A stretch of DNA of 64,000 bases from Thermodesulfovibrionales bacterium (GTDB taxonomy: Bacteria > Nitrospirota > Thermodesulfovibrionia > Thermodesulfovibrionales > SM23-35). Position 1 is the first letter of the stretch; every line of letters begins with the position of its first letter. Of this stretch, positions 86 to 63,910 are shown piece by piece. The notes below the pieces were generated by a model. That model was not told where the DNA came from, ran no database searches, and saw only the letters and a list, made by a program, of their open reading frames with translations. The position numbers and the translations under genes are program-made. The stretch is from assembly GCA_963716185.1 (NCBI GenBank), contig OY970295.1:3163316-3227315 (forward strand). The letters are read 5' to 3'.

Positions 86-2605
86 TCATGCTGCCGGTAC
101 GGAACTCAACGCCGAAAGTTTGTCCCTCAAAAACTTTCCGGTATAGGAGCCGGGATTGGAGCTGATTTCTTCGGGAGTGCCGTATGCGACAACCCTGCCT
201 CCTCCTTCGCCTCCTTCCGGGCCGAGGTCTATGATATAGTCTGCGGATTTTATAACATCGAGATTATGTTCTATGACAATGACAGTATTTCCGGAATCAA
301 CGAGCCTGTTTATAACGTTTACCAGTTTCTGGATATCGACAAAATGCAGCCCTGTTGTAGGCTCATCAAGGATATACAGTGTATTCACCCTTGATGTTCT
401 CCCGAGTTCTTTCGACAGCCTTACCCTTTGCGCTTCGCCGCCTGAAAGTGTCGAGGCTGGCTGGCCGATCTGCAGATAGCCGAGACCCACGTCCTCGAGT
501 ACTTCCAGTTTTTGTTGTATGGGCGGTATCGCGGAGAAAAACTGGAGCGCCTCGGAGATGGTCATGTCGAGCACCTCTGCGATATTTTTTTCTTTATATC
601 TGATATCAAGTGTCTCTTTGTTGTATCTTTTGCCCTTGCAGGTATCGCAAGGTATATAAACGTCCGGAAGGAAATGCATCTCAACTTTTTTCAGGCCGTC
701 TCCTTTGCAGGCTTCACACCTTCCGCCCGGAAGATTGAAGCTGAACCTGGATGCAGAATACCCCCTTATCCTCGAGTCGGATACCTGTGCAAAGAGGTCC
801 CTTACAAAGGAAAAGACACCGGTATATGTTGCGGGGTTGGACCTCGGCGTTTTTCCCAGCGGCGACTGGTCGACACTCGTAACCCGGCTTATCTTATCCA
901 TGCCTTTTATTTCTTTGTACCTGCCGGGCACGTGCCTGCTGCCGTAAATTTCTTTACAGAGGGCTTTATAGAGAATCTCGATTATGAGCGTGCTTTTGCC
1001 TGATCCCGAAACTCCCGTAACACACGAAAACACTCCGAGTGGTATATCTACGGCGATGTCCTTGAGGTTGAATTCCCGGGCGCCGGTAATCTTTATAAAG
1101 TCTCCCGGTATCCGTCTTCTCATGGGCACCTCTATTGCCAGCGACCCGTTGAGGAATTTTCCAGTAATAGAATTTGCATTTTTCTCTATCTCTTCCGGCC
1201 TGCCTGAAGCCGCGACCCATCCGCCCCTGAGTCCCGCACCCGGGCCCATATCCACAATATAATCAGCCCAGCGTATCGTCTCTTCGTCATGCTCGACGAC
1301 AACAACGGTATTGCCGGCGTCTTTTATGGCCGAGAGGCTTTCAAGGAGCTTTACGCAGTCCCTCGGGTGCATGCCGATGCTCGGTTCGTCGAGTACGTAC
1401 AGGACGCCTGTGAGAGAAGAGCCGAGTTGTGTCGCCAGCCTTATCCTCTGGGCCTCACCGCCCGAGAGCGTCAGGGACGGTCTGTCAAGCGAGAGATAAC
1501 CGAGGCCCACTTTTTCCATGAAGTGGAGCCTGTCTGTAACCTCTCTGAGAATGCGTGATGCGATTTCCTTTTCCCTGTCGGTAAGGTTCAAACTGCTGAT
1601 AAAATGCAGCGTTTCCTTTACAGGCAGCCTTGCGACTTCTCCGATATTCATGTCCTGGATCTTTATGCCCAATGCCTCCTTTCGCAATCTCAAGCCGTTG
1701 CATAGTCTGCAGTATCTGTATTCTTCGAGTTCTACAGAATCCTCATCAAGGTTCTCAAAGCCCAGACCGTTGCAAGCCGGGCATGCGCCCTGTCTGCTGT
1801 TGAACGAGAAAAACATGGGGTTTACATCAGGGTAGCTGATTCCACAGCGGGGACATACCGCTGTCTTCGAAAAAAGGATATCTCTTTTCTCCGCAAGCAG
1901 ATTTATCATTACCACATCCGCATAACTCAGCGCGGTTTCGATAGCATCTTTTAACTGACGCTCGATGCCGGGTTTTATAATCAGCCTGTCGATTACGATC
2001 TCGATGGTATGGCGTTTCTGTTTTTTAAGGCTGATGTCCTGCGTCAGGTCCGTCATTTCGCCGTCTATACGCGCCCGTATAAAACCCTCGCTGCGCATTT
2101 TCTGGAGCTCTTTTCTGTATTCTCCCTTTCTGTCCCTGACTATCGGGGAAAGGATCTGAATTCTGCTGCCCCCTGATAAAGACATGACCGAGTTGATGAT
2201 ATCCGCCGCTTCCTGTTTCGATATCGGAGAGCCGCAGCTATAACAGTACTGTCTTCCAATCCTCGTATAAAGTACGCGCAGGTAGTCATATATCTCCGTG
2301 ATTGTGCCGACGGTTGAACGCGGACTCCTGTTGACGGTTTTTTGGTCGATCGAAATGGAAGGGGAAAGTCCCTCGATATAGTCGACATCGGGTTTGCGGA
2401 GCTGTTCGATGAACTGTCTGGCATAAGCCGAAAGACTCTCGACGTAGCGCCTCTGTCCCTCGGCATAGATGGTATCGATGGCGAGCGATGATTTGCCTGA
2501 ACCCGATGGGCCCGTTATTACCGTCAACGCCTCTCTGGGTATGGAAAGGTCGATATTCTTGAGGTTATGCTCTCTTGCCCCCTTTATGACGATGAATTCC
2601 TGCAT
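86..2605 (-). CDS. uvrA: Excinuclease ABC subunit A (short form lacking the insertion domain)
   Basis: N-terminal GAREHNLKNI, two Walker A motifs (GPSGSGKS, GVSGSGKS), two LSGGEAQR signatures, CxxC zinc fingers. Confidence 0.96.
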   Translation of the reverse strand: MQEFIVIKGAREHNLKNIDLSIPREALTVITGPSGSGKSSLAIDTIYAEGQRRYVESLSAYARQFIEQLRKPDVDYIEGLSPSISIDQKTVNRSPRSTVGTITEIYDYLRVLYTRIGRQYCYSCGSPISKQEAADIINSVMSLSGGSRIQILSPIVRDRKGEYRKELQKMRSEGFIRARIDGEMTDLTQDISLKKQKRHTIEIVIDRLIIKPGIERQLKDAIETALSYADVVMINLLAEKRDILFSKTAVCPRCGISYPDVNPMFFSFNSRQGACPACNGLGFENLDEDSVELEEYRYCRLCNGLRLRKEALGIKIQDMNIGEVARLPVKETLHFISSLNLTDREKEIASRILREVTDRLHFMEKVGLGYLSLDRPSLTLSGGEAQRIRLATQLGSSLTGVLYVLDEPSIGMHPRDCVKLLESLSAIKDAGNTVVVVEHDEETIRWADYIVDMGPGAGLRGGWVAASGRPEEIEKNANSITGKFLNGSLAIEVPMRRRIPGDFIKITGAREFNLKDIAVDIPLGVFSCVTGVSGSGKSTLIIEILYKALCKEIYGSRHVPGRYKEIKGMDKISRVTSVDQSPLGKTPRSNPATYTGVFSFVRDLFAQVSDSRIRGYSASRFSFNLPGGRCEACKGDGLKKVEMHFLPDVYIPCDTCKGKRYNKETLDIRYKEKNIAEVLDMTISEALQFFSAIPPIQQKLEVLEDVGLGYLQIGQPASTLSGGEAQRVRLSKELGRTSRVNTLYILDEPTTGLHFVDIQKLVNVINRLVDSGNTVIVIEHNLDVIKSADYIIDLGPEGGEGGGRVVAYGTPEEISSNPGSYTGKFLRDKLSALSSVPAA

Positions 2606-2745
2606 AACAACTTAGTATAACACAGCGAATTTGAACTCTTTCTACGGGCCTTTGGCCGGAAAAGCGGGTGAAGTCCATATAATATCGTCCAGAGGTAGAG
2701 TGGGAGTTGTCGTATATATTTTGAGATTTGTGGTAGGATATATAG

Positions 2746-3120
2746 ATGAAAAAGGTCGTCTTGTTGCTAATGTTAGTATTGTTCCCTGCGATCTCTTATG
2801 CGCAGCCATCAATAGCTTTCGATGCTGAAAACTACGATTTTGGGACTGTGTCCAGTGGAGATTCGATAGAACACACCTTTGAATTTACGAATTCTGGGGA
2901 CAAGGAACTCGTCATCGAAAAGCTGGTCCCGTCCTGAGGGTGTGCAGCGGCAGTGGCCAGTTCGAGTCATTTGAACCCCGGAGAAAAGGGAAGGATTACC
3001 GCGAAGATTGATATAAAAGGAAGGGCCGGCGTAGTCTCGAAAAACATTCAGGTTTTTTCGAATGACCCCAAAAGGCATGTTGTTTCCCTTTTCATTAAGG
3101 CAATAATAAAAAAGCAATAA
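2746..3120 (+). CDS. DUF1573-family exported protein, probable selenoprotein (UGA 2935-2937 read as Sec, U-G-C motif)
   Basis: Signal peptide, then YDFG..HTFEFTNSGDKELVI..PS-UGA-GC. The frame stays open to TAA 3118-3120 with a family-like C-terminus (LNPGEKGRI..KNIQVFSNDP). Hairpin at 2960-2976. Confidence 0.8.
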
Positions 3121-3235
3121 CACAATTGTGAGTCGTATCTCTGTTCCTCTTTTGATGCCGGATAGATCGTTGAATTTCTATTTCTTGCAGAACCCCGTTT
3201 GATATAAAATAAAAATTAAATTAAGTGCCGGAACT

Positions 3236-3484
3236 ATGAGTATATTTAAAGAAAGCTGCCCGGGAAGCAGGGAAATCAGAACTCCTTACCCTGAAGAAAT
3301 AAAGTGTTTCTGGTGCGACACTGTTTCCGAGATTTGGTCTGATGAGGCGGAGATTGAGTGCAAAAGATGCAAGCGGACCATTTCGCGCGAGATGAAGCCT
3401 ACCTGTATTGAATGGTGTCCCTCGGCAAAAGAATGCATCGGCGTCGAGAAATACGAAAGGCTGATGAAAGGAAAGAAGAGATAA
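3236..3484 (+). CDS. Small Cys-rich putative metal-binding protein
   Basis: 82 aa with CPG, CxxC, CxxC and CxxxC-x5-C pattern. Confidence 0.7.
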   Translation: MSIFKESCPGSREIRTPYPEEIKCFWCDTVSEIWSDEAEIECKRCKRTISREMKPTCIEWCPSAKECIGVEKYERLMKGKKR

Positions 3485-3492
3485 GTCCGTGC

Positions 3493-4350
3493 CTATGGAT
3501 GGGAACAGAGCGCATCGGCCTCTCTTTTTAAAATCTTCGCAAGGCCCTTATCAAGGCCGCTCTTTTTCATGAAAGTTTCTTCTTCCATATCCGCAATATC
3601 CATGGCAAGGACAATGCCATTACTGAAGAGTGTCTCCACTGAGTTCCTCGTGACGGAAGAAAGGATAGTTACAGGATAAAGCCTGTTATTTTCGATCATT
3701 TTCTCCAGGCTTTCCTTTTCAGGGTACTTCCAGCTTACTATCTTCAGCCCGGTACATTCGGCATATTTTATCGCGTCAGAAGAACATCGGGTATTTGTCA
3801 CCAGCCATCCCTGCTGTATCATAACGTTTTTTTCAGGCATAAAGTCATAGGCCTTCTTGATGTCCGCATATCTTGAATGAACATAGAGCGCAATCTTTAC
3901 ATCGGCGGGGATCCCTCCGTTGCTGTGGTATTTGCACTCTATGACGTGCCACTTATCGTCTTTGCCCGCGAAGACATCTACTTCATGTGTAACGCAGTAT
4001 CCCTTTATAATGCGGTTTACTTCCACTGAATACCCATATGTCCTGAGAATTCTCGCGAAATATTTCTCGAATTGATAGCCCGCAGGCCCGAGGGAATAGA
4101 TCGCTTTTTTGATGGAATACCTCATGTCCGAAACCCTGTTGTATTGTCTCAGCAACCTCTTTGCCATCCTGAAGATGTGTTTCGTATGAGAGCCATGGGT
4201 GACCTGCCTTTGGACTTTTCTTGCTATGTCCCAGGCCATGTCCTCTGATGCCCCCGACCTGATAAGCGAATCGACAAGCTTTTCAATAAGGAACTCTTCC
4301 GGCTGTCCCGATGCCTTTATTATTTTCAGCGGCATCGGAAATATTACCAC
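3493..4350 (-). CDS. ATP-cone domain plus Mrr-like restriction endonuclease domain protein
   Basis: N-terminal IIKASGQPEEF..KLVDSLIRSG (ATP cone), FEKYF, HEVDV..IECK (PD-(D/E)xK). True start may be ATG 4335. Confidence 0.75.
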   Translation of the reverse strand: MVIFPMPLKIIKASGQPEEFLIEKLVDSLIRSGASEDMAWDIARKVQRQVTHGSHTKHIFRMAKRLLRQYNRVSDMRYSIKKAIYSLGPAGYQFEKYFARILRTYGYSVEVNRIIKGYCVTHEVDVFAGKDDKWHVIECKYHSNGGIPADVKIALYVHSRYADIKKAYDFMPEKNVMIQQGWLVTNTRCSSDAIKYAECTGLKIVSWKYPEKESLEKMIENNRLYPVTILSSVTRNSVETLFSNGIVLAMDIADMEEETFMKKSGLDKGLAKILKREADALCSHP

Positions 4351-4956: not shown

Positions 4957-5743
4957 GTGTTAATATTTCAAAACTATATGCAATCTATTTTGTCACTACT
5001 GCAATGGATCTTTTTAATTCCTGTTGTCGGCGGCTCTATCTATGCAGTTTTATGCCTGATTGCCGTTTTACGCTTTCGCAAAAAGGCGGTTTCCCCAACG
5101 CCAAGTAATTGGCCGCCTGTCACGGTTCTCAAGCCGGTGTGCGGCCTTGAGAAGAACCAGAGGGAAAACCTGCGGAGCGCATGCCTGCAGGATTATCCCG
5201 AGTTTCAGGTTGTTTATTCCGTGCAGAACCTGGACGATCCGGTTATCCCGCTCCTCAAGGAAATTCAGCGGGAGTTCGGCCCTGAAAGAGTCTCTGTTGC
5301 TGTTGAAAGTATAAGGTTCGACACGAACGGAAAGATCAACAACTTAATGGGTGCGCTGCCTAATGCAAGATATGACATCCTTATAATCAGTGACAGCGAT
5401 GTGTACCACCCGCACAGCGGAGCCCGCCGGTTTTTTTGCGAGCGTGCTGACTCGTGCGGTCCCGTTCGCAGTTTTTTTCGCCGCTGTCAGGATGGCAGAC
5501 ATGCCGGGGCTGATGGTTTTGTGCGGAGCTGTCGCACTCCGTATTATAACGGCGGCAGCGATCATGTTGTGGAGGATCGGGGATTATCAGGGTTTGAGAA
5601 GTCTGCCCCTTCTCCCCTTAAGAGAAATGGCTGCCTTTGTCTCCTGGTTTTTGTCCTTTACAAAAAAAACCGTCCGCTGGAAGGATTCTGAATTCAGTCT
5701 CACACGGGACGGACGCCTCGTTTCAAGAGAATCGAAGCCGTGA
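4957..5743 (+). pseudogene. HpnI-like family 2 glycosyltransferase pseudogene with internal deletion and frameshift
   Basis: N-terminal half (VTVLKPVCG..NGKINNL..ISDSDV) ends at ~5403. The C-terminal membrane part (TRTAEPAGFF..VRWKDSEF) continues in another frame. The middle part present in the intact paralog 40430-41581 is missing. Confidence 0.8.
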
Positions 5744-63718: not shown

Positions 63719-63796
63719 TGGCGGGGTGGACGGGACTCGAACCCGCGACCTCTGGCTTGACAGGCCAGCGTTCTAACCGGTCTGAACTACCACCCC
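63719..63796 (-). tRNA. tRNA-Asp(GTC)
   Basis: Cloverleaf GGGGTGG..CTGGC-CTGTCAA-GCCAG..GGTTCGAGT..CCACCCCGCCA. Confidence 0.95.
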
Positions 63797-63834: not shown

Positions 63835-63910
63835 TGGTAGGCGGAACAGGGCTTGAACCTGTGACCCCAGCCTTGTAAGGGCTGTGCTCTCCCAACTGAG
63901 CTATCCGCCC
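63835..63910 (-). tRNA. tRNA-Val(TAC)
   Basis: Cloverleaf GGGCGGA..CAGCC-CTTACAA-GGCTG..GGTTCAAG..TCCGCCTACCA. Confidence 0.95.

Follow-up and report, generated by a model that had tools for sequence, protein, structure and literature searches.

A probable DUF1573 (OS_HP2) selenoprotein gene in a Nitrospirota genome and a small conserved hairpin downstream of its UGA codon

The window analysed here is a stretch of 64,000 nucleotides (nt) from a Thermodesulfovibrionales bacterium (GCA_963716185.1, contig OY970295.1, positions 3,163,316 to 3,227,315 of the forward strand), and all positions are given within it unless a contig or locus is named. The subject is a small gene at 2746-3120, whose reading frame is interrupted by a single TGA codon and which an earlier note, made from the letters alone, had taken for a hidden selenoprotein of the DUF1573 family. 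The features of the locus, with selenocysteine abbreviated as Sec (U) and the selenocysteine insertion sequence as SECIS, are the following.

2735-2738, plus strand: AGGA, a putative Shine-Dalgarno element read from the sequence, 7 nt before the ATG
2746, plus strand: ATG start, read from the sequence
2746-3120, plus strand: full open reading frame (ORF) of the predicted selenoprotein, 124 codons plus TAA, with a DUF1573/PapD-like immunoglobulin (Ig) domain (PF07610, AlphaFold2 model)
2746-2802, plus strand: probable signal peptide M1-A19 with a basic N-terminal end, a hydrophobic core and S-Y-A followed by Q-P (recognised by eye, cleavage site putative)
2935-2937, plus strand: UGA, probably read as Sec at residue 64; TGA stands in the same column in 28 of 28 related loci (L010-L037) and in 47 of 67 loci of a wider scan
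2935-2943, plus strand: predicted U-G-C motif, Sec64-Gly65-Cys66, at the turn that links strands 55-62 and 67-71 (translation, AlphaFold2 model)
2953-2970, plus strand: family-conserved SECIS-like hairpin with arms 2953-2958 and 2965-2970 and loop AGUUCG at 2959-2964 (RNAalifold consensus, covariation)
2960-2976, plus strand: hairpin of the earlier note, GTTCGA/GTCAT/TTGAAC, with arms 2960-2965 and 2971-2976 and loop 2966-2970 (present in the minimum free energy (MFE) fold, not conserved)
3118-3120, plus strand: TAA stop of the full-length ORF, read from the sequence

The frame that opens at the ATG meets the TGA at codon 64 and, as the earlier note had pointed out, remains open for 60 more codons up to the TAA. 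When the TGA is translated as U, the product is one protein of 124 residues with S-U-G-C at residues 63-66. ORF calling under genetic code table 11 splits the locus into a 63-aa ORF (2746-2937) and a separate 55-aa ORF that begins with GTG (2953-3120), and both products are recorded in public collections, the 63-aa one for the source contig of 3,585,087 bp, in line with the earlier expectation that standard pipelines truncate the gene. It is exactly this split that can be cited for the reading in which the TGA is a true stop and the locus consists of a 63-aa fragment followed by an unrelated or decayed downstream piece, that is, a pseudogene or a split gene. Contigs from four other public runs cover the site and none of them alters 2935-2937: two are identical to the window across the parts covered, while the other two come from a relative that is about 92% identical (38 differences in 489 nt) and that keeps the TGA, its final stop being TAG instead of TAA.

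At the protein level, the Pfam model DUF1573 (PF07610) matches residues 23-119 with E = 6.5e-25 and 87.5 bits, against a gathering cut-off of 26.1, and the HYDIN/VesB-like Ig model PF22544 matches with 4.3e-13. The read-through frame is far beyond chance, as the DUF1573 match spans the TGA. The best match in NCBIfam is NF041425, described as 'OS_HP2 family (seleno)protein', which is covered over 95 of its 98 profile positions with E = 6.9e-23; the same model is matched by all 29 aligned sequences (best E = 6.6e-26) and also by cysteine (Cys) forms from other phyla.

The distribution of the TGA among homologues bears directly on how it is read. In a set of 40 related genomes, 29 had a match, and among the 31 matches other than the gene itself 29 contain exactly one TGA, the other two being weak matches in one genome. 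In the 28 loci fetched from this set (L010-L037) the TGA invariably stands in the same column, preceded by S, T, K or A and followed by G-C, only L033 (U-G-G-C) and L037 (U-R-R-C) differing in spacing, and the protein sequence is conserved before as well as after the UGA, at 37-71% identity (tblastn). The case that the earlier note had raised against itself, a TGA peculiar to this assembly and TGC or TGT in all close homologues, is thus not what is found, and within one bacterial order all homologues examined keep the predicted Sec form. Moreover, the conservation of the TGA column and of both flanks in 28 of 28 loci, down to 37% identity, effectively refutes the pseudogene or split-gene reading. 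The 3' half holds the invariant family residues P78, G95 and K99, a covarying hairpin accompanies the TGA and the genome contains Sec machinery, all of which speak against a true stop as well, a reading that is hardly credible.

A wider pattern scan, built on the 15 closest sequences and limited to one genome per species, returned 67 loci; one of its two patterns contains C-G-C and so finds Cys forms only, and many of its genomes overlap the species set of the 40-genome search, so that the counts of the two are not independent. The aligned codon is TGA in 45 of these loci, TGA lies one codon off in two more (L072, U-G-G-C; L083, U-P-T-C), TGC or TGT is found in 19, all of them C-G-C, and the remaining one has neither Sec nor Cys (L076, A-A-G-N). 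By record title, the TGA loci are Nitrospirota, Thermodesulfovibrionia or Dissulfurispiraceae metagenome-assembled genomes in 47 of 47 cases, and the 19 Cys loci belong to Aminicenantes, Ignavibacteria, Bacteroidota, Desulfobacterota-type bacteria, Binatia and others. Lipoprotein-like homologues of Bacteroidota (P0005-P0013) likewise have S-C-G-C. Both the pairing of UGA with Cys codons in homologues and the family motif C-G-C at the place of U-G-C, on which the earlier note had relied, are therefore found in the family. In a sample of 201 genomes of the phylum, 93 of which matched, there are 99 matches with E <= 1e-12; a count by hand gave an in-frame TGA for 66 of them and none for 33, the column position of the TGA being checked in 12 fetched loci only. 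As a separate observation, L076 (1501-1875), a Thermodesulfovibrionales homologue, retains a remnant of the SECIS-like hairpin described below (GGCC / AGTTCG / GGCC) and may be a decaying or repurposed copy.

The genome appears equipped for Sec insertion. It contains selA (529.9 bits), a SelB-specific winged-helix domain in a frame of 631 codons, a tRNA-SeC with anticodon tca (ARAGORN) and two selD genes that exceed the cut-off of TIGR00476, both containing a single in-frame TGA. All of them lie on the 3,585,087-bp contig of the window itself, and with them selA, selB, selC and selD, which the earlier note had listed as genes to be confirmed, are accounted for. The selD genes lie outside the window, at 555130-556053 and 1111338-1112261 of the contig, both on the minus strand, and would represent two selenoprotein copies of SelD.

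A TGA that is read through need not be read as Sec, and a reassigned code, with Trp or Gly at TGA, or near-cognate suppression would also join the two halves of the frame. Three metagenome proteins (P0002, P0003 and P0004, 55-88% identical) indeed have W at the Sec position, a residue that points to translation of TGA as Trp by the gene caller. Against reassignment, the genome has 1496 stop-to-stop frames with 300 codons or more, of which 592 close with TGA, 573 with TAA and 331 with TAG; being the commonest stop of long open frames, TGA is not reassigned there. Furthermore, 25 homologues have an ATG and an uninterrupted sequence, and in 8 of these TGA is the final stop, which implies that the same codon would mean Sec at one site and stop at another within one gene. 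In addition, the position aligns with Cys, and not with Trp or Gly, in 19 of 19 loci with TGC or TGT, and a full Sec system is present together with a TGA-linked hairpin. Read-through by anything other than Sec is accordingly an extremely improbable explanation. We consider it very probable, on these comparisons, that 2746-3120 encodes one precursor of 124 residues with the UGA read as Sec, a member of the exported, Ig-fold DUF1573 (OS_HP2) family. By the same logic, counterparts in dozens of Nitrospirota genomes would be split or truncated by standard callers; some callers turn the TGA into Trp, and the NCBIfam model that would rescue the gene scores under its cut-off.

The region downstream of the UGA was compared in an alignment of 29 sequences, which covers the TGA together with 9 nt of preceding and 63 nt of following sequence. 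RNAalifold returned one consensus helix, 2953-2957 with 2966-2970, to which many homologues add a sixth pair (2958/2965). The hairpin begins 15 nt past the UGA, at +18 from its U, and lies within codons V70-H75; in the source genome its pairs are G-U, U-A, G-C, G-U and C-G, followed by a C/A mismatch. Taken over six pairs, the helix has 87.4% of its 174 cells paired (shuffle mean 79.0%), both sides are changed in 20 cells (shuffle mean 8.2) and the covariation score is 0.379, against 0.232; none of 500 shuffles reached the observed values, and slid registers of the same helix pair at just 17-41%. For the outer pair (31/48), 16 sequences have AU, six GC, two GU, one CG and one UA, and its covariation couples a first codon position (A/G of Met/Val) to a third position at which the change (T/C) is synonymous. 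All 29 sequences share T2961, the base with which a Ser codon AGT ends.

The hairpin also follows the TGA across the wider scan. The 45 TGA loci have a mean of 5.47 of six in-register pairs, with at least five pairs in 44 of them, whereas the 19 Cys loci have a mean of 2.53, with at least five pairs in one. In the TGA loci the loop reads AGTTCG (23), AGTTCA (12), AGTTTG (5), AGTTCC (4) or AGTTCT (1), and is therefore AGUU(C/U)N in 45 of 45; among the Cys loci, many synonymous codons are used for the two Ser residues.

The earlier note had placed the SECIS in the hairpin at 2960-2976. This hairpin exists as described, it belongs to the MFE fold, its loop (GUCAU) starts with a G (G2966, 29 nt after A2937), and its energy of -4.0 kcal/mol compares with -3.2 kcal/mol for the conserved one. 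Across the 29 homologues, however, 63.2% of its cells are paired, one cell shows a double change, 494 of 500 shuffles score at least as high, and a slide by +1 scores equally. The two hairpins overlap and are mutually exclusive, and single-sequence thermodynamics cannot decide between them; the comparison does, as the hairpin at 2953-2970 is conserved and linked to the TGA. In the relative of about 92% identity, T2967C strengthens the conserved stem, where G-C replaces a G-U, and falls in the loop of the hairpin at 2960-2976. The latter was thus rejected as the SECIS, and a function of that kind for it in the source genome is very unlikely. On the strength of the alignment, the conserved, covarying hairpin at 2953-2970 should replace it as the candidate SECIS.

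Turning to the protein, its N-terminus (MKK, a hydrophobic core and S-Y-A/Q-P, judged by eye) follows a pattern common to all full-length homologues, which points to a precursor with a classical signal peptide of the general secretory type and to an exported mature protein of about 105 residues. An AlphaFold2 model built from the 29-sequence alignment (predicted local distance difference test 90.0, predicted template modelling (TM) score 0.75) comprises a helix at 2-17 and eight strands, residues 63-66 being the turn from strand 55-62 to strand 67-71. Invariant in the same alignment are G33, N49, G51, L55, I57, U/C64, C66, P78, G95 and K99, and G65 is nearly so. The best structural match is PDB entry 2qsv (Foldseek E = 6.8e-7, TM 0.74), the second domain of which (VIA) superposes with Z 14.8 and a root-mean-square deviation of 2.7 over 105 residues; the next matches are the Ig domains of VesB/VesC and the ASH domains of HYDIN and CEP192. 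CsgC, nDsbD, SoxY and copper chaperones, sought by eye in the fold searches, are not among the matches listed, and a sequence search of the PDB returned only VanA at chance level (E = 0.24). The description of the product as an exported, Ig-like selenoprotein in the earlier note is thus supported by the DUF1573 and Ig matches, the conserved TGA, the Sec genes and the signal-peptide pattern, the last of these making export a prediction.

Further indications of the cellular context come from fusions of the domain in related genomes, the coordinates of which refer to the locus named.

L035, 1195-1887, minus strand: predicted Sec form, DUF1573-cytochrome c fusion with two CxxCH motifs (Pfam)
L036, 1477-2163, plus strand: predicted Sec form, DUF1573-cytochrome c fusion with two CxxCH motifs (Pfam)
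L117, 999-1919, minus strand: fused U-x-x-C form (Pfam, tree)
L116, 4-1326, plus strand: fused U-x-x-C form (Pfam, tree)
L037, 694-1824, plus strand: fused U-x-x-C form (Pfam, tree)

In L035 and L036, DUF1573 is joined to a C-terminal c-type cytochrome domain (PF13442, 4.3e-12 and 1.7e-11). The Cys forms L106, L111 and L112 have the same fusion by Pfam, and L107-L109 have it by their CxxCH pattern only, as seen by eye, so that cytochrome c fusions occur as Sec and as Cys forms across several Nitrospirota families. L117, from the same order, joins SCO1/SenC (PF02630, 4.5e-18) to a DUF1573 domain with U-K-A-C, while in L116 (U-R-A-C) and L037 (U-R-R-C) an N-terminal part of about 270 aa with CarboxypepD_reg precedes the domain. 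Since cytochrome c and Sco domains both function outside the cytoplasm, these fusions agree with export.

Taken as a sequence of events, the proposal runs as follows. The UGA at 2935-2937 would be decoded as Sec by the genome's own system of SelA, SelB, SelD and tRNA-Sec, with SelB recruited by the short hairpin at 2953-2970 (loop AGUUCG), which starts 15 nt downstream of the UGA. The signal peptide would then direct export of the mature protein of about 105 residues, which is predicted to adopt an Ig beta-sandwich fold of PapD/ASH type, where Sec64-Gly65-Cys66 would occupy a turn joining two strands. There, the U-x-C pair could work as a redox-active selenylsulfide or selenol-thiol centre, and the protein as an oxidoreductase of the periplasm or as a module that relays electrons there.

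Of the possible functions, that of a selenol/thiol module in the periplasm, for redox reactions or as a relay, is favoured, with a chance that we put at roughly even. It is favoured because the U/C-x-C motif is invariant bar one degenerate relative, because CxC motifs have redox precedents and because the domain is fused to cytochrome c and to Sco. In the passages concerned with its CxC motif, the Ig-fold, periplasmic protein CsgC is reported as redox-active at potentials like those of protein disulfide isomerase, with -139 mV for CsgC and -167 mV for a CGC tripeptide, and nDsbD is given as another redox Ig fold (PMC3173608); redox activity of CGC also appears in the part of a 2026 preprint that deals with it. 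Since the fold matches are generic and of non-redox function, the case for a redox role draws on the motif and the domain fusions alone.

The main alternative is that U-G-C serves as a soft-metal ligand site, for instance for Cu(I), in a periplasmic chaperone, or as a carrier arm delivering sulfur or selenium species to a cytochrome. The fusion of DUF1573 to SCO1/SenC, a family of copper chaperones and thiol-oxidoreductases, fits this role, as does the cytochrome domain of one fused member, which weakly matches SoxX (TIGR04485, 1.4e-4). The lineage consists of sulfur-cycling anaerobes, which counts in the same direction. The invariant columns nevertheless hold no conserved His or Met co-ligands, the neighbourhoods of the 28 loci have no metal or sulfur genes, and the fusions are equally compatible with plain electron transfer; we regard a metal or sulfur-carrier role as possible but rather unlikely.

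Several observations weigh against the reading of the gene as a redox-active selenoprotein with a SECIS at 2953-2970. The conserved hairpin is weak in the source genome, with five canonical pairs, two of them G-U, and the less favourable of the two energies given above. The 61-nt region folds no better than its shuffles (MFE -13.8 kcal/mol, shuffle mean -14.45 kcal/mol, z = +0.25, 112 of 200 shuffles at least as good), and an Rfam scan of 2700-3200 with E up to 10 gave five chance-level matches and no SECIS family. L076 has lost both Sec and Cys. The score against NF041425, obtained with C in place of U, is 80.8 bits and lies under the curated cut-off of 100 bits, and the clade accordingly stands outside the trusted subfamily of that model. 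The fold search yields only generic PapD/ASH/MSP-like Ig domains of non-redox function, and the gene lacks informative neighbours among the 28 loci.

In a quick maximum-likelihood tree, the domain segments of L009-L117 except L038 (108 loci) were reduced to 95 distinct rows and 123 columns by leaving out segments of less than about 85 query residues, segments containing X and duplicates; L076 is labelled 'Cys' in it although it has Ala at that position. Of these rows, 66 with Sec form one group of 67 rows together with L076 (support by the Shimodaira-Hasegawa-like approximate likelihood ratio test (SH-aLRT) 86), the three fused U-x-x-C forms make up a separate clade (SH-aLRT 97), and the label Sec or no TGA needs at least 3 changes on the tree, against a shuffle mean of about 23. 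The tree is unrooted, its alignment short and its search quick, so that it gives neither the direction nor the number of Sec origins.

Upstream of the gene, a divergent UvrA-like gene, named by eye, is found in 16 of the 28 loci. Directly downstream, an 82-aa Cys-rich ORF (window 3236-3484, plus strand), with two CxxC pairs and further Cys, no Pfam match and no signal peptide by eye, recurs in 7 of 28 loci at 59-86% identity. A 285-aa protein (window 3493-4350, minus strand) with a weak ATP-cone as well as Mrr_cat restriction-endonuclease and AF1548-like C-terminal domains is kept in 3 of 28. The neighbourhood was rejected as a clue to function, the UvrA-like gene, the Cys-rich ORF and the Mrr-like protein at these frequencies being uninformative. 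A second close paralogue was not found in the source genome, which has only two further weak DUF1573 matches inside large proteins. A promoter and terminator scan of 2550-3550 did not locate those of the gene; it gave a single promoter-like and a single terminator-like site, which lie on the minus strand and do not exceed what shuffles yield. Elsewhere in the window, two ORFs overlap in different frames on the plus strand (4957-5691, 244 aa, and 5390-5743, 117 aa, together 4957-5743), which may reflect a frameshift or chance, and the far end carries a tRNA-Asp (gtc) at 63719-63796 and a tRNA-Val (tac) at 63835-63910, both on the minus strand (ARAGORN, converted coordinates).

Compared with known systems, the hairpin resembles bacterial SECIS elements in some respects. 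Bacterial SECIS elements, such as that of E. coli fdhF and those modelled by bSECISearch, are hairpins a short distance 3' of the UGA within the coding region. The hairpin described here likewise lies just 3' of the UGA in coding sequence and has G and U in its apical loop (A-G-U-U-C-R), but it is very short, with a 6-bp stem and a 6-nt loop, and no bulged U is seen. By inspection by eye, small hairpins after the TGAs of the two selD genes begin at about +13/+14 from the U, as compared with +18 in the DUF1573 gene.

As regards structure, 2qsv is a two-domain Porphyromonas gingivalis protein of unknown function with 18-22% identity and adds no mechanism. CsgC offers a parallel in design, being a small, exported protein of Ig-like sandwich fold whose two-residue chalcogen motif (CxC) lies where a loop meets a strand; no relation in sequence to CsgC or nDsbD is apparent, and neither is among the fold matches listed, so that the likeness lies in possible working and not in family. 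Tentatively, with the odds somewhat against so composite a proposal, the U/C-x-C Ig domain of DUF1573 might join nDsbD and CsgC as a third kind of Ig fold with redox activity, a selenol/thiol module of the periplasm whose partners in the exchange of electrons, or of a soft ligand (Cu(I), sulfur species), are c-type cytochromes and Sco-type proteins, and which is encoded in Thermodesulfovibrionia-type Nitrospirota by a near-universal, single-copy gene of Sec form with an unusually small SECIS (6 bp, loop AGUUCR) in an Ala-Ser-Ser-Ser stretch.

As to family, the word 'hidden' in the earlier note does not hold, the family having been in print since 2007-2008 and having its own NCBIfam model, NF041425. 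According to the passages on it, OS_HP2 was first reported in the Olavius symbiont metagenome, a dataset with two genes that contain the TGA and without Cys homologues (PMC1976440). The selenoproteome table of the Global Ocean Sampling (GOS) project has the entry OS_HP2, pfam07610, UxC, 2, 2, 354, the last number being Cys homologues (PMC2398784), and DUF1573 is a selenoprotein family in the tables of reviews of 2022 and 2026 (PMC9312934, PMC13188914). The descriptors used in these tables and passages are pfam07610 and the motifs UxC and UGC. Among the four papers that a full-text literature search turned up for DUF1573, there is no functional study. The figure legend of 2007 gives no SECIS for OS_HP2 (PMC1976440), and the OS_HP2 and DUF1573 passages of this literature mention no SECIS, no cytochrome or Sco fusions and no Nitrospirota distribution.

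The gene is a further member, from a Nitrospirota clade, of the already described DUF1573 (OS_HP2) selenoprotein family. What is added here, modestly, is the definition of a candidate SECIS by comparison, the predicted Sec form kept throughout the examined homologues of one order, and the recurrent fusions to cytochrome c with a single one to SCO1/SenC, through which a redox role in the periplasm becomes open to testing; current knowledge is not overturned. With OS_HP2, as far as the published tables and passages describe it, the gene shares pfam07610, the U-x-C (UGC) motif and a Sec that aligns with Cys in many homologues, whereas the first reports of OS_HP2 concern deltaproteobacterial worm symbionts and ocean samples and the gene described here belongs to a clade of Nitrospirota/Thermodesulfovibrionia.

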